Virus genome (UHGV): UHGV-0127437
Reading direction: 5' to 3' (one strand)
DNA: 51,462 bases
From: a virus
Shown: piece after piece, positions 4,945 to 47,720 of the stretch
Layout: the number at the start of each line of letters is the position of its first letter
Numbering within the stretch: position 1 is the first letter of the stretch
Program-made: the position numbers and the translations under genes
Notes under the pieces: generated by a model
Databases searched by the model: none
Seen by the model: the letters and a program-made list of their open reading frames with translations, nothing else
What the model was told of the DNA's origin: nothing

Positions 4945-6978
4945 AACTATATTACCCACACCATCTTTCCACGCACTTCCTGTCCATGTGATAGCATAAC
5001 CAAGAGTTGTATCCAGTATCTGCGCTCCTGCATCTGCTGCGTTTAATGAAGGGCGTAGTGCGGTCGTAAAGCTCGGTATCCGCACAGGTTTGTTAGCCTG
5101 TATGACGTTGTTCGGAGAAGTAATGTTACCAAAAGAACCAGATACTACGTGGATGACTGCGTAGCGATAACGTAACGCACCTACGCCAGTCCCTTCATCA
5201 GTGCCTAATGAAATAGTGCCGTCTCTGTGTGGCCGCAGGTACGCATGGCTACCTGACTCGTATACCGGGCCGAGGCGCATTGGGTTGGCGGTGCCGATAC
5301 AGATCCAGTTGGCAGAGAATAGCCGGTTATATGCTGTAGGGGCAGACCCATCAACATTATTGACTGTCAGGTCACTGACACCCAAGCCGTTGTGCCCACC
5401 AATAATACTCACTCGACCCGTAAGGTTAGTCATATAGTGGGTTCCAGCTTCACTATAGGTGTTTACCAAGTTAACGTTCGCTACCCGGTTCATGTAGAGA
5501 TTCCCTACACGAATGGTCGTGTTAACAAAGAATAGCTTGCTGCCGCGCCCATCCTGCCATTCTTTCGGATAACCGTTGACTGACGTTGTACCACTCCCAG
5601 ATCCGTCTGTAGCGTAATCGTTCATTCGGTTCGCGGGTTTCTCTGCGGTGTTTATCGCGGCATCGAGGTAAACCCCGCGAATGACGCTATTTGAGAAAAA
5701 CAGGTCGGACGTTCCTGTGCCGCCCCAAATCCAGTTAAGCGCGTAGCCGTTAGCCCCTTGCGGGTATTTAGTCCCGTCCCGGATATCCCGGTCAGTACCC
5801 TTTAGTTTCAACCCATACGAGCTAATCGCGCTTACCAACTGAGTGGGCTGTTTTGGGTCGAGAGGCCATGCAAAGAAATTATCGAATGACAAATCGCACA
5901 TGCTTTGACTGTTGATGCGCCCATTGATATTGAACGTATTGCCAGAACCGTTATTCTGGTCAGATCGGGAGCAGTCGAGGAGAACTGCATCATTCGCAAA
6001 GTAGCCGATAACCGCAGTACCAGACAAGGTTAACCCTGACACTGCCGGAACAAACAGGCCATATGAGAAGCACGCCGTTGCCCCGACGTCATCCACCCCG
6101 GTCAGCGATGGCGCTTCAAGAGTCCCGTCTGTCCGTTTGCGCCACCCCATCAGCACAACGTTGTTGATTGAGATTCCGTGGTCGCAAATACATAAGCCTG
6201 CACTGATCGCCGGGTCATCAGCGCCCTCTACAACGTCTGTCAGGACGTACGTTGCGGGGGTGCCTTTGAGGTTAAATCGGGTAAATCCCGGATCACTGAT
6301 AAGCGTCGCGAGTGTCGTCGCCTCATGACGCATACTATGTGAACGCACCGTGACGGCCTGCGCACCGGTAATGGTCGTGTTTCGTGGGATCATTCCCCAT
6401 TCAATATCAAAATCACCTGGGGGGAAGTGGCAGTTCCTACCAGCATTCTCATCTAAAAACGCCTGGATTTCTTCTTTTGTTGCGCCGCTTCCCCCCGTGA
6501 AATACACGTCATAAGACAGCCGTTCTGCAACCGTCACATCACCATAGCCGATCTGATCTGCACCGGTTGGCAGCGCCAGTTCGCGGCGCAGGACATCGCT
6601 GACATCTACGGCCAGCCATTTTCCGACACCTGTACCGCCGGATGAATCTGGAGTAGAGCCTGGCGGAACGGTTTTCGGTAGGGTCGTTAGATCATCCCAG
6701 CGATACCATGCGCCTGTTGTCTCATCCTGAATGATGTCACCGGCGGAATTAATAACCGCCCCGCCCTGAAATGTCCCGACTGGATTTAAGCCGAGGTTCG
6801 CGAGCGCTGTTTTATAACGCTCTTCCATTCCATGCCACGTAAGGCGCGGCACGCCAAAACGGTCATCCCATGTTTCATTAACCCGGTCATTCGAAAGGTG
6901 ATCAAAGTTCTGTGCGTTATCGTAAAGAACCTTGGCGGATGCAGAACCAAGAGGTTCATTGGTGTTATAGGTGGTCAT
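4942..6978 (-). CDS. Tailspike / tail fiber receptor-binding protein (likely O-antigen specific, beta-helix type)
   Basis: 678-aa ORF, ATG start; conserved phage-tail-attachment-like N-terminus, Gly/Asn/Thr-rich repetitive body typical of beta-helical tailspikes; P22-like position next to gtr operon at prophage end. Confidence 0.65.
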   Translation of the reverse strand: MTTYNTNEPLGSASAKVLYDNAQNFDHLSNDRVNETWDDRFGVPRLTWHGMEERYKTALANLGLNPVGTFQGGAVINSAGDIIQDETTGAWYRWDDLTTLPKTVPPGSTPDSSGGTGVGKWLAVDVSDVLRRELALPTGADQIGYGDVTVAERLSYDVYFTGGSGATKEEIQAFLDENAGRNCHFPPGDFDIEWGMIPRNTTITGAQAVTVRSHSMRHEATTLATLISDPGFTRFNLKGTPATYVLTDVVEGADDPAISAGLCICDHGISINNVVLMGWRKRTDGTLEAPSLTGVDDVGATACFSYGLFVPAVSGLTLSGTAVIGYFANDAVLLDCSRSDQNNGSGNTFNINGRINSQSMCDLSFDNFFAWPLDPKQPTQLVSAISSYGLKLKGTDRDIRDGTKYPQGANGYALNWIWGGTGTSDLFFSNSVIRGVYLDAAINTAEKPANRMNDYATDGSGSGTTSVNGYPKEWQDGRGSKLFFVNTTIRVGNLYMNRVANVNLVNTYSEAGTHYMTNLTGRVSIIGGHNGLGVSDLTVNNVDGSAPTAYNRLFSANWICIGTANPMRLGPVYESGSHAYLRPHRDGTISLGTDEGTGVGALRYRYAVIHVVSGSFGNITSPNNVIQANKPVRIPSFTTALRPSLNAADAGAQILDTTLGYAITWTGSAWKDGVGNIV

Positions 6979-29513: not shown

Positions 29514-29617
29514 ACTGGCTCCAGAAACGACAAAGCCCCGCACGATGGCGAGGCTTTAAGTTCGTCGACAATCAAAGCTATGGCGACAATATCAGATTTA
29601 CATGAAATATAGCCGTT

Positions 29618-40421: not shown

Positions 40422-40964
40422 TCACATGACACCCGGCGCTATGGCCGCGATACCACTCAGAACCTGAACGACAGCATCACCCGGCAACATATTCAGCAGA
40501 TGCTCAATCCCTTCCCTGACCTCTTTCACCAGCTGATGCTTTGGCGCATTCAGCATTACGGCCTGTTTCGCCTCGCTGATTTCCTTCTCCATCGCTGCAA
40601 AACGCGTCATGAAACAATCCTGTCCGATAAGACGCCCACGAAATTCCATCGGCAAAACAGCCAGGATTGCAGGAGTCAGCTGGCGGATGTTTTCGCGCGC
40701 ATATCCGGTATCACTGTCCAGCCAGCGGAAAAGCTTCTGCCGCTTACGGCTCAAGTCATCAGGAAAATCCAACCCGGCGCCGCCCTGCCGTTCCCATTCT
40801 TCAACGATGATCCCGGCGACTACGTCCTGGTTGTCCAGCGATGCCGACCACGCACGAACGGCAGCACGAATCTGGTCATGCTTATCCGCCGGATCAGGCT
40901 GATTGCGATTTATCATCGTGGCCGGAGGAAACCCGGTATTTTGTTGAAATGAAATTGAATGCAC
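40422..40964 (-). CDS. YdaT-like protein at cII position (regulator/toxin-like family)
   Basis: 180-aa ORF immediately downstream of cro; segments EEWERQGG...LTPAILAVLPMEFRGRL resemble Rac prophage YdaT as recalled; GTG start with GAGGG RBS. Confidence 0.45.
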   Translation of the reverse strand: MHSISFQQNTGFPPATMINRNQPDPADKHDQIRAAVRAWSASLDNQDVVAGIIVEEWERQGGAGLDFPDDLSRKRQKLFRWLDSDTGYARENIRQLTPAILAVLPMEFRGRLIGQDCFMTRFAAMEKEISEAKQAVMLNAPKHQLVKEVREGIEHLLNMLPGDAVVQVLSGIAAIAPGVM

Positions 40965-40966
40965 GG

Positions 40967-41200
40967 TTACGCCCTCGCTTCCTGCGCCGGTAATCCATCC
41001 GTTGGGTTCGGATACAGATCAGGGCGCAATTCGTGAGGGGTAACACCGGTTATGCTGTGAATTTTTAATATGTAATCTGGCGGCACAATGCCTCTGTCGC
41101 GATGTTTCCAATGGCTAATTGACATACTGGTTACACCAAGTGCCATGCTTAACTTTCTCGCTGAACCAGCAGCCTTAATTGCTTTATCAAGTGCTGTCAT
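40967..41200 (-). CDS. Cro-like HTH transcriptional regulator
   Basis: 77-aa ORF divergent from cI-like gene; HTH segment ARKLSMALGVTSMSISHW; AGGAG RBS. Confidence 0.6.
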   Translation of the reverse strand: MTALDKAIKAAGSARKLSMALGVTSMSISHWKHRDRGIVPPDYILKIHSITGVTPHELRPDLYPNPTDGLPAQEARA

Positions 41201-41301
41201 TTTCTTCTCCTAACTATCAACGAAGAAAGTAAACCACAGATTTATATTTCAAGCAATATTCAATTTATTGAGTGTGTAAACTAACCATTTACAATGAGAG
41301 A

Positions 41302-41685
41302 ATGAGAAAAGAAGAACCCAACAAAGCATTGATAGCGCGACTCAATGAGGTCTATGCCAGAGGCATTACCAAAGCAGATATGGCGCGAATAGCCGGAGTC
41401 TCGCCTCAGGCGGTCAATAGCTGGTTTAAAAAAGGCGTTATTAGCAAAAAATCAGCACTGGCTATAGCCGATGCTGTTGGCGTTTCGATCGCCTGGCTAC
41501 TCGGGGAAGATGTCGGCGAGAAAGATGGTATGAAGCCCGACGAGCAGCGCCTGCTGGAACTCTATCGCCAGTTGCCGGAAGAAGAGCAGCAGAACATGTT
41601 GCGGATCGTGTCTCTGCGCCTTAAGGAACTCGACGAGCTGTACGCCAAGTACATGGGACGGCGGATTAAGGGTGATGCGGAATAA
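41302..41685 (+). CDS. CI-like prophage repressor, HTH (XRE family) without S24 peptidase domain
   Basis: 127-aa from ATG at 41302 (track GTG at 41272); HTH ITKADMARIAGVSPQAVNSWFK; too short to contain LexA-like autocleavage domain. Confidence 0.65.
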   Translation: MRKEEPNKALIARLNEVYARGITKADMARIAGVSPQAVNSWFKKGVISKKSALAIADAVGVSIAWLLGEDVGEKDGMKPDEQRLLELYRQLPEEEQQNMLRIVSLRLKELDELYAKYMGRRIKGDAE

Positions 41686-41777: not shown

Positions 41778-42692
41778 ATGGTAATGGAAGCACCTTATCA
41801 ATTAGAATTCACTGAAAACATTTATTATTCAATAGGTAATAACCCCAGCATTAAAGAAATCATTGAGTCTCTTCAAGGCTGGGAAGCTATTATCAAACAA
41901 TCTAAAGGAGTCCTTGCAGAGCTAACTGGAAGTGATATCCTGGATATTGAAGTTAGGGTTCAAAAGTTAGAAGTCGGGAGCCTAACTGAAAAAATTCTTA
42001 TCAAGTTAGGTTTTGGCAACGAAGAGAATTTTGATAAATTTCTCGAAAATGCGCATGAAAGGTACATCGGAGAAGGAAAAATGCGTAGCGCCTTAGTTTG
42101 GACGGTTATAGCAGGTGTACTCGCCACGGGTATGTATTTAGCCGTCAAAAACATGGCACCCAATAATGCCTCCCACTTCGAAGCAAATAATAATATAATC
42201 ATTAACATAGGTGCTGGCGAAACTAACATTTCACCTGAAAGAATACAGTCGGTGCTCAATAGTACATTAGTTGATAAAAAAACCGCTGCCAAAGGTGCTG
42301 TCAAAATTTTATCTCCAGCGCGAAATGACGAAAATGCAACATTAATGATAGGTAGCGATAACACTTCCGTAACAATACCTTCAGATTTAATCTCTAAAAC
42401 ACCAACCGAGGTTAGTTTTGAAGCTGATACATATACTCGAGACCATTACGATGTTGACCTTGAGATAAGAGCTCTTGATCTCGACAATCCGACAAAGGGA
42501 TGGGCTGCCGTGATTCCTGGCTTAGTTGATCGAAGGGTAAAACTAGTTTTGGCACCCGGGATTAAACCAGAAGACCTATCCCATAAATTCGCCTTCCGCG
42601 CTGATGTAACCATTACTTATAAACTTACGTCATCTAAAGGCGAAGCATACAAGCCAACAGAAATATTTTTAAGCAAATTAATCGCGGAATGA
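41778..42692 (+). CDS. Hypothetical single-TM protein downstream of repressor (rexAB-position cargo; candidate exclusion/abortive-infection gene)
   Basis: ~305-aa AT-rich ORF co-oriented with cI, one central hydrophobic helix (LVWTVIAGVLATGMYLAV), followed by strong terminator. Confidence 0.5.
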   Translation: MVMEAPYQLEFTENIYYSIGNNPSIKEIIESLQGWEAIIKQSKGVLAELTGSDILDIEVRVQKLEVGSLTEKILIKLGFGNEENFDKFLENAHERYIGEGKMRSALVWTVIAGVLATGMYLAVKNMAPNNASHFEANNNIIINIGAGETNISPERIQSVLNSTLVDKKTAAKGAVKILSPARNDENATLMIGSDNTSVTIPSDLISKTPTEVSFEADTYTRDHYDVDLEIRALDLDNPTKGWAAVIPGLVDRRVKLVLAPGIKPEDLSHKFAFRADVTITYKLTSSKGEAYKPTEIFLSKLIAE

Positions 42693-42696
42693 AATT

Positions 42697-42722
42697 AACC
42701 CGGCCACCGCGCCGGGTTTTTA
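42697..42722 (+). terminator. Rho-independent terminator ending immunity-region transcript
   Basis: Stem cccggc/gccggg, 6-nt loop, T5 run immediately after stop codon of 306-aa gene. Confidence 0.7.
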
Positions 42723-43037
42723 TTGCCCTTTCCTCACAAACTCCGCAGCATCCCTCTTTGCGCCCTTGACTGTTTAGCAGCTATACACGCTACATCTACT
42801 TAATCAGGCTATCCTTGTTGATATATGATGCAAATAATCAGTTGGGAAATAATAAGAGAGTATCTGATAGTATGCCTGGTAACTGTTGTTATGGTCGCCG
42901 CGATTTCACTGGTTATGCTGGCCTGGTGAATTTTGCAGGGGTCTTTTCCCTGAAACATGCGCGACAACACACTCTGGTAAGACAAGCTCTGTTATGGTGC
43001 ATGAACAAGAAATAACAGCACCATATATCCGACTTAC

Positions 43038-43072
43038 AGCCCGGATTACGACACGTTCCGGGCTTTTTTTTT
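43038..43072 (+). terminator. Strong rho-independent terminator
   Basis: Stem gcccgga/tccgggc with 11-nt loop followed by T9. Confidence 0.75.
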
Positions 43073-43075
43073 GCC

Positions 43076-43285
43076 CTATTCTTCCAGCAACTTCACCGCC
43101 AGTTCCATCGCCTGAATCTGGTCAGCATCCCACTTATCCAGCCCCTTCGATATCTCCGTTCGTATCACGTCAGCTATAGCCACTCTTTTGGTTTCATGCC
43201 CTTCAGCCACCATCGCAAACACAACATCACCCACAATCCGGCACATTTCCTGATAGCGCAACTGCGCCAGTTCCTCGTAATCCAT
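43076..43285 (-). CDS. Hypothetical small acidic protein
   Basis: 69-aa ORF from ATG at 43285 with GAGGG RBS (track start is GTG at 43327). Confidence 0.4.
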   Translation of the reverse strand: MDYEELAQLRYQEMCRIVGDVVFAMVAEGHETKRVAIADVIRTEISKGLDKWDADQIQAMELAVKLLEE

Positions 43286-43558
43286 CACTAACCCTCGGCA
43301 ATTGATGTTTTTGTGAGCATAACACACGCTCCCTCTCCCAACATATAAACCTAAAATTTACACCAAACATTAATTGAAAGTTGACACAACTATAAACCAG
43401 TGATTTAATCAATATCACAGCAACACGACCACCCAGGCAGGACGCCCACGAAGTAGCCGTCCGGGGCATACGAAGACCGGAATGAGGTGGATGAGTTAAC
43501 GCGCAGCAGGTATCAAACGTTCCGCCAGCCGGGCGACAACGGCAAGCAGAGGGTGAAA

Positions 43559-43831
43559 ATGAAAATTGATTTAGATCTCAAGGCGCAGGGAGTTGACGTT
43601 TCAACCAGCGGTTATCGCGATTTTGTTAACGCCGAAATTCGCGGCGTTGAAGTGGATGATGTGCTGGAAGAAATCGAAAGCGATGTACTGTTCGCTGCCA
43701 TCGACCTGCCGGATTACATCGACTGGGCTGACAACAACAGCAAGTTACCGGAAATTCTGGATCGTCTTTCTCCTGACGAGGTCATTAGCTGGCTTCGCGA
43801 TAACGGGCATCTGGAGGATAACGATGATTAA
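43559..43831 (+). CDS. Hypothetical acidic protein, first gene of early-left operon
   Basis: ATG at 43559 with GAGGGTG RBS (track start is GTG at 43487). Confidence 0.45.
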   Translation: MKIDLDLKAQGVDVSTSGYRDFVNAEIRGVEVDDVLEEIESDVLFAAIDLPDYIDWADNNSKLPEILDRLSPDEVISWLRDNGHLEDNDD

Positions 43832-43951
43832 CCAGCAGCAAGTCCGGGAGGCTCAACGCCTTGCATGGTTCGCCGTTCGGCATCGCAATATCCAGGTATG
43901 GGAAGAAGCCAAACGTATTTACGCACTTGCTATCGGGAGGACTCTTCACTG

Positions 43952-44137
43952 ATGGAGACGCTATTCGCACTGGTATTAACGGTCGCAATGACCAACGGTG
44001 ACTTTCAGGATGTGATTCTCGGTGTATATGACAACCAGCAGGAATGCCAGGCCGCAGCTGTCGAGCAAAAGGTTAATGGTGAGTGCTGGCCTGTTGAGGG
44101 AATTATTCGCAACGGAGAGCTGCCAGCAAGCATCTGA
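43952..44137 (+). CDS. Hypothetical small protein with hydrophobic N-terminus
   Basis: 61-aa ORF from in-frame ATG at 43952 overlapping upstream small ORF stop. Confidence 0.35.
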   Translation: METLFALVLTVAMTNGDFQDVILGVYDNQQECQAAAVEQKVNGECWPVEGIIRNGELPASI

Positions 44138-44146
44138 GGAGGGGTA

Positions 44147-44305
44147 ATGCAGAAAGAATGCGGTTACTGCCGCAAACCCGTTGAAGAAGGCAAAGAAGTA
44201 AAGAGCATCCTTTTCTATCGCAATGGCAACCGGCTTGCCAACAAAGAAAAAGAATACTGCTCAAAGCAATGCGCTGAATACGATCAGATGGCGCACGAAA
44301 GTTAA
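44147..44305 (+). CDS. Hypothetical 52-aa Cys-rich (zinc-ribbon-like) protein
   Basis: ATG preceded by GAGGAGGGG RBS; CGYC...CSKQC pattern; below the track length cutoff, translated by hand. Confidence 0.35.
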   Translation: MQKECGYCRKPVEEGKEVKSILFYRNGNRLANKEKEYCSKQCAEYDQMAHES

Positions 44306-44392
44306 CCAGCAGTCCTGAAATATGAAACAAAAAATTCGCCATTAATTTGGCGCGGCTTCTTACACCCTGAATTTAACAACCGGAGAAGTTTT

Positions 44393-44680
44393 ATGGAAAT
44401 CGTAAAAATCGAAATGAACCTGAAAGCAGTGAATAAAGAATTGGCTGTATTCAACTGCGAGAAGAAAGTATCAGGCGTTATTCATTCAGCCGAAACGGGC
44501 GCGGTCACGGTCATTCTTGACGGTGGCTATGTATTCGGCAAGTTCGACTGTCCTCTTTGTGCTGTAGAGGCAATTTCAATGCTGTCCGTAAAAGTAAGTG
44601 ATGGCGATAACGCCGGGTTTGGCAACTACCGCAGCTACAAACTCGATTACTCAGAAAAGGTTTTCAGCACCGTTCATTAA
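44393..44680 (+). CDS. Hypothetical protein
   Basis: 95-aa ORF, ATG start, early-left operon. Confidence 0.4.
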   Translation: MEIVKIEMNLKAVNKELAVFNCEKKVSGVIHSAETGAVTVILDGGYVFGKFDCPLCAVEAISMLSVKVSDGDNAGFGNYRSYKLDYSEKVFSTVH

Positions 44681-44807
44681 GCAAAAGCCCACACGAAGTG
44701 GGCCTGCCCGTCCGGCGTCACCGACCAAAGCGAACCGGACATTTCTACCTGGTAAAACCGAGGTGCCATTAAGGCGCCTCCATTCTACACGAATTGAGGA
44801 TAAAATA

Positions 44808-47720
44808 ATGAGTGGAACTAATCCTGTATTTTTAGTCCGCAAAGCAAAGAAATCATCAGGCCAGAAAGATGCAGTTCTCTGGTGCAGCGATGATCTTGAA
44901 GCGGCAAATGCCACACTGGATTATCTCCTGATTAAATCCGGCGCAAAGCTGAAAGATTATTTTAAAGCTGTTGCCACTAATTTCCCCGTCGTTAACGAGC
45001 TTCCGCCAGAAGGCGAACTCAGCTTAACGTTCTGCGATTTCTACCAGCTTGGAAGCGACAACATGACCTGGGCGCAGATCCCCGGTGTTACGTTGCCCTC
45101 TTCTGATGCTGCCGCCGAAGCACGTCAGCATATCGTTAACGGTGTTGATACCGAAACAGGTGAAGTGCTGGAAGATCACACAGAAGAAGTTGTTGATACC
45201 GAAACTGGCGAAATTACCCAGCACGAACAGCCGTCAACTGAAGACAATGGCGATCGACCTGAACACCCTCAGTTAACTGTTGTGGCAACGATGCCCTTCC
45301 GTCATCGCGTTCTGGCTCAACATATTGGCGATGGCGAGTATCTCTATCATGTCGATGAAGAGCAGAAAAAAGCAATTCTCGCTCTGGAAATGGACACTGA
45401 TAACTCATATGTCCAGAACCTTTTACTTGCGTCTGAGAATGTTGAACCATTCAAAAAGGCCATTGAACACGATATCCATAAAGCGGTAAATGCTGTTAAG
45501 AACGTGTTTCCTGCCGATGGCAAAATCCCTGAGCTGGCAAGCGTTATCCAGTTTCTGAAAACATGGTTCGATACCCCTCATATTGATCGCGGGCTGCTCG
45601 TTAAAGAGTGGTGCAAAGGTAATCGTGTATCAGCTATTCAGCGTACTGAAAGCGGCGCGAACGCTGGCGGCGGAATTGCATCCGATCGCAAAATGCCCCA
45701 GACCACTCTCGGTCTTGAATTTGAAATAGCCTTAGGCCTGCTGGCGCGTCAGTATGAATTTGATATTTATTCTCTGCCATTGCAGATCGAACTAAAGGCT
45801 AATTCAATCATGAACGCAGTTGACGACCCTGAGTGGCTGGCAACGCGCGAACTGTTCGTGTCAATGCCTGGTGGTCTGGACTATTCCCGCGCATGCATCG
45901 TTGCAACGGTAAAAACCACACCAGATGAACTGTACAAATCCCCATTTCGCCACCGCGAGTACCTGAATAAGGTGCTGACAGAAACTGACCATGCCAATCC
46001 CGATCCGCTTGTCGTTGATATTGCCTGCGGACGTTCGTCCATGCCTATGCCAACGCCAGTAAGACAGGATGAACCATCCGTTGAAGAAGTAAACCGACAA
46101 CTCGCAGCTGCGCGCGGTGATTACGTTGAAGGTATCAGTGACCCTAACGATCCGAAGTGGGTTCATGAAGACTACAACGCCGCCTCAAATGAGGGAGAAA
46201 AAACGGAAAATGAGGACGTCGCCGATGTGCAGGTTCAAGAAACTGACGGTAATGAAGAACAGGCTGGTGATGCGCTGCGTACAAGCGAAAGCGATCTGGG
46301 GAATGGTGAAGAAGCAGATACCGGCGAACAAGCCGATGTAGACCACAATCAACCGGAAGTGAGCCAGAACAACGATTCTGCAAGCCATTCTGAGCCAGAA
46401 GCGCAACAGGAAGAACCAATGCCAGTGTGGCCGGAATACTTCGAGCCGGGGCGTTATGAAGGCGTACCGAACGAGGTATATCACGCGGCGAATGGCACCA
46501 GTTCGACGATGGTAAAAGATGCCCGGGTATCGCTGATGTATTTCGAGGCGCGCCACGTATCCAAAACCATCCAGAAAGAACGCACCAAAGTCCTGGATAT
46601 GGGGAATCTGGTGCACGCGCTGGCATTACAGCCTGAACAACTGGAAAAAGAGTTCAGCATCGAGCCGGAAATCCCGGAAGGTGCGCTCACGACGACAGCG
46701 ACGATCCGCGCGGTTATCGACGAACACAACGCCAGCCTGCCGGCATTACTCACCGCAGACGATATCAAAGCGTTGCTGGAAGAATACAACGCCACCCTGC
46801 CCGCGCCATTACCGCTTGGGGCATCCGTTGACGAAGCGTATGCGTCATATGAGCAACTCCCGGAAGAGTTCCAGCGCATCGAAAACGGGACTAAGCATAC
46901 AGCAGCGGCAATGAAGGCCTGCATCAAAGAATACAACGCCACCCTGCCGCCGCAGGTGAAAACCAGCGGAAGCCGTGACGCGCTGCTTGAGCAACTGGCG
47001 ATCATCAACCCTGACCTGGTCGCACAGGAAGCACAGAAGCCACAGCCGTTGAAAGTATCCGGCACCAAAGCGGATCTGATTCAGGCAGTGAAATCCGTCA
47101 AACCTGAAACAGTGTTTGCCGACGAGCTGCTTGACGCATGGCGCGAAAACCCCGGCGATAAAATTCTGGTTACCCGCCAGCAGTTGAGCACCGCGCAGGC
47201 CATCCAGAAAGCGCTGCTGAATCACCCGACCGCCGGGAAGCTGCTGACGCATCCGAACCGCGCCGTAGAGGTGAGCTATTTCGGTATTGATGAGGAAACC
47301 GGGCTGGAAATCCGCGTGCGCCCAGACCTTGAAATCGACATGGGCGGCCTGCGCATCGGTGCGGACCTGAAAACCATCAGCATGTGGAATATCAAGCAGG
47401 AAGGCCTGCGCGCCAAACTGCACCGGGAAATCATCGAGCGCGATTATCACCTGAGCGCTGCCATGTACTGCGAAACCGCAGCGCTGGACCAGTTTTTCTG
47501 GATATTCGTCAACAAAGACGAGAACTACCACTGGATCGCCATCGTCGAGGTATCCGAAGAGTTGCTGGAACTCGGCATGCTGGAATACCGCAAAGCAATG
47601 CGCGCCATAGCGAACGGGTTCGACACTGGCGAATGGCCAGCGCCGATTACCGAAGATTACGCCGAAGAACTCAACGATTTTGATGTGCGCCGCCTTGAAG
47701 CGCTGCGCGTACAGGCATAA
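44808..47720 (+). CDS. RecE-like exonuclease VIII (large early recombination protein)
   Basis: ~970-aa ORF from ATG at 44808 with GAGGA RBS, immediately upstream of RecT-like gene as in Rac recET; contains internal EYNATLP repeats. Confidence 0.55.
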   Translation: MSGTNPVFLVRKAKKSSGQKDAVLWCSDDLEAANATLDYLLIKSGAKLKDYFKAVATNFPVVNELPPEGELSLTFCDFYQLGSDNMTWAQIPGVTLPSSDAAAEARQHIVNGVDTETGEVLEDHTEEVVDTETGEITQHEQPSTEDNGDRPEHPQLTVVATMPFRHRVLAQHIGDGEYLYHVDEEQKKAILALEMDTDNSYVQNLLLASENVEPFKKAIEHDIHKAVNAVKNVFPADGKIPELASVIQFLKTWFDTPHIDRGLLVKEWCKGNRVSAIQRTESGANAGGGIASDRKMPQTTLGLEFEIALGLLARQYEFDIYSLPLQIELKANSIMNAVDDPEWLATRELFVSMPGGLDYSRACIVATVKTTPDELYKSPFRHREYLNKVLTETDHANPDPLVVDIACGRSSMPMPTPVRQDEPSVEEVNRQLAAARGDYVEGISDPNDPKWVHEDYNAASNEGEKTENEDVADVQVQETDGNEEQAGDALRTSESDLGNGEEADTGEQADVDHNQPEVSQNNDSASHSEPEAQQEEPMPVWPEYFEPGRYEGVPNEVYHAANGTSSTMVKDARVSLMYFEARHVSKTIQKERTKVLDMGNLVHALALQPEQLEKEFSIEPEIPEGALTTTATIRAVIDEHNASLPALLTADDIKALLEEYNATLPAPLPLGASVDEAYASYEQLPEEFQRIENGTKHTAAAMKACIKEYNATLPPQVKTSGSRDALLEQLAIINPDLVAQEAQKPQPLKVSGTKADLIQAVKSVKPETVFADELLDAWRENPGDKILVTRQQLSTAQAIQKALLNHPTAGKLLTHPNRAVEVSYFGIDEETGLEIRVRPDLEIDMGGLRIGADLKTISMWNIKQEGLRAKLHREIIERDYHLSAAMYCETAALDQFFWIFVNKDENYHWIAIVEVSEELLELGMLEYRKAMRAIANGFDTGEWPAPITEDYAEELNDFDVRRLEALRVQA

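Follow-up and report, generated by a model that had tools for sequence, protein, structure and literature searches.

Among the closest described counterparts of the locus considered here are the pL-N region of lambda and the put RNAs of HK022. The latter are characterized by a stem I of the form AGACG..CGUCU and by conserved GAACGGC and GGAUGA segments (PMC9378689). Gifsy repressors of the short type without a peptidase domain are inactivated by antirepressors (Lemire et al. 2011, PMC3121763). In lambdoid phages that possess neither N nor put, it is poorly understood how early transcription gets to the end of long operons. Here, we analyze positions 42,723 to 43,558 of the viral genome UHGV-0127437 together with their surroundings; the whole stretch of 51,462 nucleotides (nt) is called the window in the following, and its plus strand corresponds to the "leftward" direction. 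To judge by its genes and signals, the region is the place where the immunity (lysogenic) transcription unit of an N-less lambdoid prophage of the Gifsy type adjoins the early-left operon. Its most distinctive part is a leader RNA at the start of the pL transcript, which the first-pass annotation of the sequence overlooked.

The nearest phage records are SPN3UB, Gifsy-2, Gifsy-1 and mEp237, each with 81–83% identity over parts of the window, and the IMG/VR contig L042 is identical across the 3.2 kb compared. As a whole, the locus is best explained, with moderate confidence, as a junction that combines a patchwork carrying an orphaned micropeptide open reading frame (ORF), a back-up transcription stop, a repressed pL and a cis-acting leader RNA.

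A Conserved pL Leader RNA with Three Helices

The leader RNA comprises 62 nt (43429–43490, plus strand; approximately +13 to +75 of the predicted transcript) and was delineated by RNAalifold and by pair counts. It contains three helices: P1 (43429–43433 with 43486–43490, plus strand) closes the two hairpins P2 (43436–43438 with 43456–43458, plus strand), whose 17-nt loop AGGACGCCCACGAAGUA (also given as GGACGCCCACGAAG) is nearly invariant, and P3 (43460–43464 with 43477–43481, plus strand), which carries a 12-nt loop. The remainder of the leader (43491–43558, plus strand) is of the Gifsy type, is partly shared with Gifsy-1 of LT2 and ends in the Shine–Dalgarno sequence GAGGG; the pL leader totals approximately 143 nt. 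The helices were first proposed from sequence variation, and RNAalifold independently gave exactly the same structure.

The base-pair covariation is directly visible in the alignments. P1 varies as a unit between lineages (CCACC/GGUGG, UCAUC/GAUGG, GCGAA/UUCGC), and one P3 pair alternates between U-A and C-G in the first alignment. In a second set of divergent phage copies, aligned with a covariance model built from the motif, all five P3 pairs show compensatory change (e.g., UCCGG/CCGGA, CCUGG/CCAGG, CCCGA/UCGGG, CUACC/GGUAG), and both sides have changed in 10 of the 13 pairs. Here, 96.5% of the cells are paired compared to 22–49% when the partners are slid by one to three columns, and the covariation score of 0.576 stands against at most 0.157 in controls, with none of 500 shuffles reaching it; these values come from lineages that are not independent, from a first alignment that is gap-free and locked on the loop sequence only, and from a second one that is fitted to the covariance model. 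The occurrence of G-U pairs assigns the structure to the plus-strand RNA, that is, to the pL transcript. The covariance model matches 43429–43490 with 100 bits, and this is the single copy in the window.

A stretch of 26 nt centered on the P2 loop is nearly invariant from Pectobacterium to Salmonella phages, and this invariance of the loop suggests recognition by a conserved host component. The AUGA junction (43482–43499, plus strand) is nearly invariant as well and opens a tiny ORF, which reads MRWMS before its stop codon in the window and MRWKS, MRW or MIRK elsewhere; because no Shine–Dalgarno sequence precedes it, this ORF is probably structural rather than coding. Elsewhere in the window, the 12 nt at 40631–40642 (plus strand), GACGCCCACGAA, are identical to sequence of the invariant loop. 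They have the same orientation as the loop and lie antisense to a YdaT/cII-like gene, and the match may be due to chance (covariance model 9.9 bits, E 0.42).

The leader RNA is a conserved, structured RNA that is supported by covariation and absent from Rfam. A search of 42600–43700 against Rfam 15 returned nothing at gathering score; the matches with E values of up to 10 all score far lower, and 43424–43499 contains none of them. Relaxed Rfam scans of the region produced terminator-driven noise only, and a literature search for the motif sequence retrieved only primers with sequencing adapters. A hammerhead-like ribozyme was considered and ruled out by junction lengths of 2, 1 and 4 nt and by the lack of a match to any Rfam ribozyme model.

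Distribution and Downstream Context of the Leader RNA

In mEp237, SEN34 and many E. coli prophages, the segment 43415–43553 has matches in the unannotated stretch that separates the immunity region from the first gene of the early-left operon. A more sensitive search located its core of approximately 52 nt in 46 phage records, with Salmonella, Escherichia, Shigella, Klebsiella, Yersinia, Citrobacter, Pantoea and Pectobacterium as host genera, and pattern scans of IMG/VR yielded 89 loci in one case and at least 120 in the other. In every locus among the matches listed, the core lies at a fixed distance after a pL-like promoter. The promoters and operators that precede it belong to many different immunity types, and the distance from the −35 and −10 hexamers to the motif is the same in these other types as in the window. 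The order cI, pL, motif is found in all ten GenBank phages examined, and each genome holds one copy of the motif.

What follows the motif is variable: among 54 distinct downstream contexts, 37 continue with the Gifsy-type leader, 10 with boxA, one with a put-like sequence and six with something else. In the boxA group (L178, L183, L184, L188, L196, L198, L207, L210, L219 and L229), a perfect rrn-type boxA, GCTCTTTAACAA, lies within 60 nt 3′ of the motif. Nine of these ten contexts have a hairpin (AAGCGCCC..GGACGCTT) between motif and boxA, which amounts to a nut-like site in rrn order, and GGACGC, which is part of the invariant loop of the motif, occurs again in the 3′ arm of this hairpin. In the put-like case, contig L236 (reverse strand), a putL-like sequence (AGTCGAACGGCGCGACTTAAAACCATGCGTCGG...) follows 3′ of the motif at 5621–5696 and is itself followed by a terminator-like hairpin. 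The variability of the downstream modules identifies the motif as a separate promoter-proximal module that is no substitute for antitermination signals. Moreover, Gifsy-1 of LT2 keeps only the last ~45 nt of the Gifsy-type leader; as the motif core is missing there, the motif is dispensable in some close relatives.

Possible Function of the Leader RNA

Upon de-repression of pL, the transcript would fold within its first ~75 nt into the three-helix RNA, which would then act in cis on the nascent transcript or on the elongation complex, one possibility being protection from premature termination. We infer that such a cis role is the most likely function. Alternatively, the RNA might be a 5′ stabilizer or a processing site for the pL mRNA, or it might be released and act in trans, which we regard as serious though less likely alternatives: its location at the extreme 5′ end of the transcript (~+13 to +75), its independence of the module that follows (boxA, put-like sequence or Gifsy leader) and its single copy per genome would all suit such a role, and the CI RNA of P4, which is cut from an operon leader, and the C4 RNA of P1 provide precedents. 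However, a plain stabilizer would not need a 26-nt near-invariant stretch around the P2 loop, and a trans-acting RNA finds no target by antisense pairing within the window, since its 51 kb contain no sequence complementary to the invariant loop. In either case, an RNA that occupies a fixed place after many unrelated pL promoters of Enterobacterales phages is a concrete element to mutate, and its position upstream of boxA and put-like signals suggests a previously unrecognized layer in early-left control.

Operators, pL and the DUF2767 Gene

The 15-base-pair (bp) operator TAAAC-N5-ATTTA has exactly four matches in the 51 kb, at 41230, 41277, 43346 and 43393, where 0.07 would be expected. All four fall at OR or OL, the two sites at which the first-pass annotation had proposed to look for operators: the OR pair (41230–41244 and 41277–41291, plus strand) lies between the cro-like and the repressor gene, the OL pair (43346–43360 and 43393–43407, plus strand) flanks pL, and the spacing is 47 bp in both pairs. 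The promoter itself (43381–43409, plus strand) consists of the −35 hexamer TTGACA (43381–43386), which had already been pointed out in the first pass, and the −10 hexamer TTTAAT (43404–43409) at a distance of 17 bp. Both of our promoter scans missed it because its −10 hexamer lacks the usual A at the second position. pL would be repressed via the two 15-bp operators, which are patterned as at OR and the second of which overlaps the −10 hexamer.

The 69-amino-acid (aa) minus-strand ORF at 43076–43285, convergent with the immunity unit and divergent from pL, turned out to be a real gene of the DUF2767/"FumD" (YdhZ) family. This assignment is predicted from a full-length family match (PF10965, E 1e-38, 131.5 bits at a cutoff of 20.7; NCBIfam NF007630 "fumarate hydratase FumD", 105.6 bits at a cutoff of 82), and the gene occupies the same position in E. 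coli prophages. Back to back with pL, a promoter-like site GTGATA-18-TATAGT (43418 to 43389, minus strand; 9/12 consensus matches, the best of the region) faces this gene, and the operator 43393–43407 lies in its spacer. As this operator both overlaps the −10 hexamer of pL and lies in the spacer of the minus-strand promoter-like site, the repressor may control both directions, that is, pL and the DUF2767 side.

Two Terminators and the Patchwork between Them

Folding and U tails bear out the two plus-strand terminators that had been proposed from the letters: the hairpins at 42697–42718 and 43038–43063 are both G+C-rich and both directly followed by a U tract. The first is the immunity terminator tImm (42697–42726, plus strand), which ends the unit of the repressor gene and a 302-aa gene. 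It has an 8-bp stem with six G-C pairs, the tail UUUUUAUU (U5AUU) and a folding energy of −14.5 kcal/mol (z −2.8), and its hairpin, which is also stable on the minus strand, is common among lambdoid phages (HK225, Klebsiella and Salmonella phages, most phi80-type loci). The second terminator (43038–43072, plus strand) comprises the hairpin 43038–43063, with an 8-bp stem and three inner pairs, and a U9 tail. Its folding energy is −15.7 kcal/mol (z −4.75), and none of 200 shuffles is as stable. A simple terminator scan missed it, as its loop exceeds the limit of that scan, and it was recovered by folding. On the minus strand it is poor, with no U tract after the hairpin. The 358-nt interval as a whole folds no better than shuffles.

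The reason for the double terminator is a stretch of approximately 350 bp (42723–43072, plus strand) that separates tImm from the convergent DUF2767 gene. When set beside related prophages, this stretch proves to be a mosaic patchwork. The empty site was found in a prophage of E. coli strain P27_L1. This prophage has the DUF2767 gene, the repressor type, OL, pL and the leader in common with the window (94.5% identity); there, the tImm hairpin directly abuts the stop codon and 3′ end of the DUF2767 gene, and the ~350-bp block is missing. HK225 has a layout that is just as compact, and another small minus-strand gene stands there in place of the DUF2767 gene. In Gifsy-1 of LT2 (L074, 5488–5680), the block is missing as well, and so are the DUF2767 gene and the motif core of the leader. 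Conversely, the block (42698–43083) recurs at 96% identity in the prophage contig L068 and in the short contig L012; L068 is a Gifsy-like prophage with another repressor allele, other accessory genes and another minus-strand gene than the window. Beyond L068 and L012 the block was not found in IMG/VR, JGI metagenomes, species-representative genomes, GenBank phages or complete E. coli genomes, and a scan of viral sequences with its 3′ part returned the same three loci only.

The block contains a truncated minus-strand gene end of 16 codons, a hydrophobic 34-aa ORF, approximately 110 nt of unique sequence and the U9 terminator. The gene end (42720–42770, minus strand) encodes TVKGAKRDAAEFVRKGQ up to the stop codon and matches the C-terminus of HK225_042 (..KGVLRDAAEMVRKGK, again up to the stop); an in-frame stop immediately upstream marks it as a relic, and on account of this relic at its left end we read the block as a scar. 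A further ORF of 66 aa (42815–43015) was rejected as a gene, as it has no family match and most differences between the two block variants change its amino acids. The interval is thus likely a recombination patchwork that holds an intact ORF and a good terminator, and not a designed regulatory unit. The first-pass view of the region as a regulatory module applies to the junction of immunity and early-left units and does not extend to the stretch between the terminators.

From these comparisons the following course of events can be proposed. Past recombination between different immunity regions would have left the patchwork, consisting of a gene end, an orphaned micropeptide copy and the terminator that belonged to the micropeptide's own unit. 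Today, transcription of the repressor and 302-aa genes would end at tImm, and any read-through would cross the ~350-bp patchwork and end at the second, stronger terminator, which probably serves as a back-up stop that shields the convergent DUF2767 gene and pL from read-through. The double terminator would then be an ordinary product of mosaic recombination, which advises caution against reading such intervals as designed units.

A strong hairpin with a U9 tail after an A/U-rich stretch is also typical of Hfq-dependent small RNAs (sRNAs), and the interval might encode one that ends at this terminator, perhaps a distant relative of AgvB/AsxR. We consider this quite unlikely. The Rfam model of AgvB does align to 43010–43070 (AUAACA.CAC.A.A.UAUC and the terminator are shared), and a CA-rich stretch, CGACAACACAC, is located at ~42967–42977. 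However, the match scores 19.1 bits against a gathering score of 56 (RF02702; E 0.15–0.8) and is largely due to the terminator, no promoter is found 50–120 nt upstream of 43072, and the two near-identical variants of the block give no measure of RNA conservation. Moreover, AgvB and AsxR are located 3′ of pR′ and not, like the block, in the immunity region (PMC4104026).

An Unannotated cI-Coupled Micropeptide Family

The 34-aa ORF of the block (42825–42929, plus strand), MMQIISWEIIREYLIVCLVTVVMVAAISLVMLAW, is a homologue of a micropeptide that is coupled to cI in phi80-type prophages. The phi80 homologue, found via a weak DNA match, reads V(M/I)REYLIVGVVTLLSVVAIVLMVA and follows immediately after cI: it is a 24-aa membrane micropeptide (L001, 3001–3076), the start of which overlaps the cI stop codon (TGATG). 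Such a stop/start overlap is the classic arrangement for translational coupling. By a pattern scan of IMG/VR, the phi80-type sequence occurs in approximately 55 prophage contigs, with at least 22 different upstream and at least 25 different downstream contexts around an almost invariant 72-nt core, which is bracketed by two copies of the sequence for the C-terminus of a lambda-type cI (WPEETFG and stop). In L035 (reverse strand, 6311–6610), three small membrane ORFs stand in tandem after cI, namely a 41-aa membrane ORF, the paralogue MMRDYLIVGTVTVLTATVIFLIVA and a phi80-type copy, followed by a terminator. A search for a third peptide type found one in L035 only.

Family members comprise 24–34 aa with a single predicted membrane span; for the window ORF the Kyte–Doolittle maximum is 3.0 over 19 residues. 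Among the three peptide types, dN/dS is 0.33–0.58, the rate of differences per site is roughly twofold higher for synonymous changes than for replacements, and every replacement keeps the segment hydrophobic; within the phi80 type, four kinds of synonymous variant compare with one conservative replacement. This pattern supports the view that the phi80-type micropeptide is a real single-pass membrane peptide, predicted to be produced along with cI. Its gene lacks an annotation both in phi80 and in those 30 E. coli genomes that were listed out of the 64 with a match, most of those listed being laboratory strains that carry phi80 DNA (DH5alpha, TOP10, EPI300); an overlooked gene is thus exposed both in phi80 and in the phi80 remnant of common cloning strains.

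The 34-aa peptide, padded with six X, had no match in a collection of 5.8 billion protein sequences, and tblastn of the peptide against phages gave no match either, possibly owing to the low-complexity filter. A degenerate peptide pattern found two phi80-type copies from Enterobacter only in species-representative genomes, and a scan of metagenomes with the pattern of the window type returned three chance matches only.

In the window, the ORF is detached from any repressor gene and sits behind tImm. No Shine–Dalgarno sequence precedes it, the ancestral start position reads ATA (ATG in L068), and its only usable starts are the ATG ATG at 42825. Neither promoter scan found a site with at least 9/12 consensus matches in the block; the best candidate, TTAATC-18-TATGAT (42800–42829, 8/12), would initiate at ~42836, downstream of the ATG ATG. 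Without a Shine–Dalgarno sequence and a convincing promoter, the window ORF is probably an orphaned remnant from which little if any micropeptide is made. What had been proposed initially, that the interval delimits a small RNA or a short-ORF transcript, holds insofar as a short ORF with real homologues exists; a convincing promoter, a Shine–Dalgarno sequence and an sRNA family at its Rfam gathering score were looked for and not found.

The same evidence bears on the idea that the block is a working moron, in which a weak promoter or read-through would give rise to a short mRNA ending at 43072 and a single-pass membrane micropeptide would be made in the lysogen, where it might prevent superinfection or alter the activity of a host membrane protein, for instance. 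Both block variants have the ORF intact, conservation within its family is of the coding type, family members persist in many contexts beside a cI expressed in lysogens, the block moves as a unit that ends in a strong terminator, and the 8/12 site could serve as the promoter. This site would, however, start transcription past the only usable start codons, the ancestral start has become ATA, no Shine–Dalgarno sequence is present and tImm lies directly upstream. Together with the truncated gene relic at the left of the block, a sign of a scar, and the empty search of the 5.8-billion-sequence collection, this makes a working moron unlikely.

Very improbable is a type I toxin held in check by an antisense RNA for which the bidirectional tImm hairpin would serve as terminator. 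Small size, strong hydrophobicity, structured flanks and a strong terminator would suit such a toxin, as would the stability of the tImm hairpin on the minus strand. Yet the phi80-type homologue is coupled to cI and would hence be made constitutively in lysogens, which is incompatible with a toxin; the block contains no minus-strand promoter with at least 9/12 matches, the one 8/12 candidate (42878–42849) lying inside the ORF; and Pfam and NCBIfam revealed no similarity to known type I toxins. The orphaned remnant remains the reading that we prefer for the window copy.

Strength of the Overall Account

Several observations weigh against the account of a junction with a scar and a cis-acting leader. 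As a single sequence, the leader folds no better than shuffles (z 0.17), so that its support comes from the comparison across phages only. In other phages the motif is followed by a recognized antitermination signal, namely rrn-type boxA in 10 and a put-like sequence in one of the 54 contexts. The 8 kb downstream of pL in the window contain no strong plus-strand intrinsic terminator, and no second copy of the motif follows pR (next best model match 10.9 bits, E 0.16). In pL, the −10 hexamer TTTAAT deviates at its second position, where an A is usual. Finally, the micropeptide ORF is intact in both known block variants, which fits retained function as well as recent origin, and the micropeptide, or an sRNA with its end at 43072, might be produced after all.

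A bolder formulation would be that the leader represents a new class of promoter-proximal RNA that binds host RNA polymerase or an elongation/termination factor and thereby programs the early-left complex, comparable in function to put and nut and structurally unrelated to them, and that the cI-coupled phi80-type micropeptide is a real membrane protein expressed in lysogens. We put this combined proposal forward as speculation.

Neighboring Genes

The immunity region begins with a cro/YdaS-like gene (40967–41200, minus strand), followed by the repressor gene (41302–41685, plus strand), which encodes 127 aa with a helix-turn-helix (HTH) domain and is 82% identical to its L068 homologue at the DNA level. 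The repressor matches HTH_3 and Phage_CI_repr only; as a short HTH protein without an S24 peptidase domain, it has the features predicted for a non-cleavable repressor of the Gifsy type. The 302-aa gene (41784–42692, plus strand; PHROG 4506, function not known) stands in the rex position, co-transcribed with the repressor gene, and has no Pfam match and one hydrophobic segment at residues ~104–124. Its place is taken by unrelated genes in L068 and in the E. coli relative, and it is a candidate exclusion or defense gene expressed in the lysogen.

The first early-left gene (43559–43831, plus strand) encodes an acidic protein of 90 aa (PHROG 7311, function not known) that, as had been recognized from its composition, belongs to no N-like family. 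The early-left operon continues with small genes of unknown function and then a RecE-like exonuclease. At gathering scores, Rfam identifies only isrB and isrJ in the window, both outside the region of interest. These Salmonella Hfq-binding sRNAs are matched at full length: isrB at 44682–44770 (minus strand, 99.9 bits), antisense to the start of the long RecE-like ORF 44598–47720, and isrJ at 29532–29602 (minus strand, 69.2 bits).

Comparison with Known Systems

With AgvB/AsxR (RF02702), the 3′ part of the block shares a short A/C-rich segment, a GC hairpin, a long U tail and its residence in a lambdoid prophage; it differs in a score far below threshold, in its location within the prophage and in the lack of an evident promoter. 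The block also resembles a moron (Juhala et al. 2000) in that it is a discrete unit missing from a close relative, lies between two genes, has its own terminator and occurs with varied neighbors. Unlike in a moron, however, no convincing promoter was found (none with at least 9/12 matches), one of its ends is a truncated gene fragment, and its ORF is devoid of translation signals. Small membrane proteins whose genes lie beside prophage repressors, such as lambda rexB and HK97 gp15, which are accessory or exclusion genes expressed in lysogens, are comparable to the phi80-type micropeptide, which is co-transcribed with and coupled to cI and has one predicted span, whereas the micropeptide is only 24–34 aa long and unannotated, and the copy in the window is detached from any repressor gene.

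The leader RNA corresponds to put of HK022 in being a structured two-hairpin RNA that begins at the very start of the pL transcript, in the putL position, of a phage without N, and its strong sequence conservation likewise suggests contact with a host component. The terminator read-through conferred by put depends on the zinc-binding domain of the beta-prime subunit of RNA polymerase. Homology to put was rejected: a BLAST search with 7-nt words against the HK022 pL and pR regions returned nothing relevant, no sequence similarity to putL or putR was detected, and on inspection the architecture differs, since in the leader motif a third helix closes the two hairpins. In the window, the motif lies after pL, as put does, and has no second copy after pR; some put phages carry putL only. 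That the motif and a put-like sequence stand in series in L236 shows that they are distinct elements.

The comparison with lambda pL-N yields the same order of repressor unit, tImm and OL/pL, all in the same direction, operators that overlap the promoter and recur at OR, and a cis element within the first 100 nt of the pL transcript, the leader motif being situated where lambda has nutL. In contrast to lambda, the window has no N-like arginine-rich protein (none among seven of the first early-left ORFs, 43559–44680, in Pfam, NCBIfam and PHROG) and neither boxA (CGCUCUUA-like) nor boxB in 43416–43558, where both inspection and a regular-expression search found none. We found two operators on each side instead of three, the repressor is short, with an HTH but no peptidase domain, and additional DNA and a convergent gene are inserted between tImm and OL. 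The first-pass conclusion that this module differs from the lambda paradigm was therefore correct, and the real departure is the combination of a Gifsy-type repressor with a conserved, structured leader RNA that is absent from Rfam.

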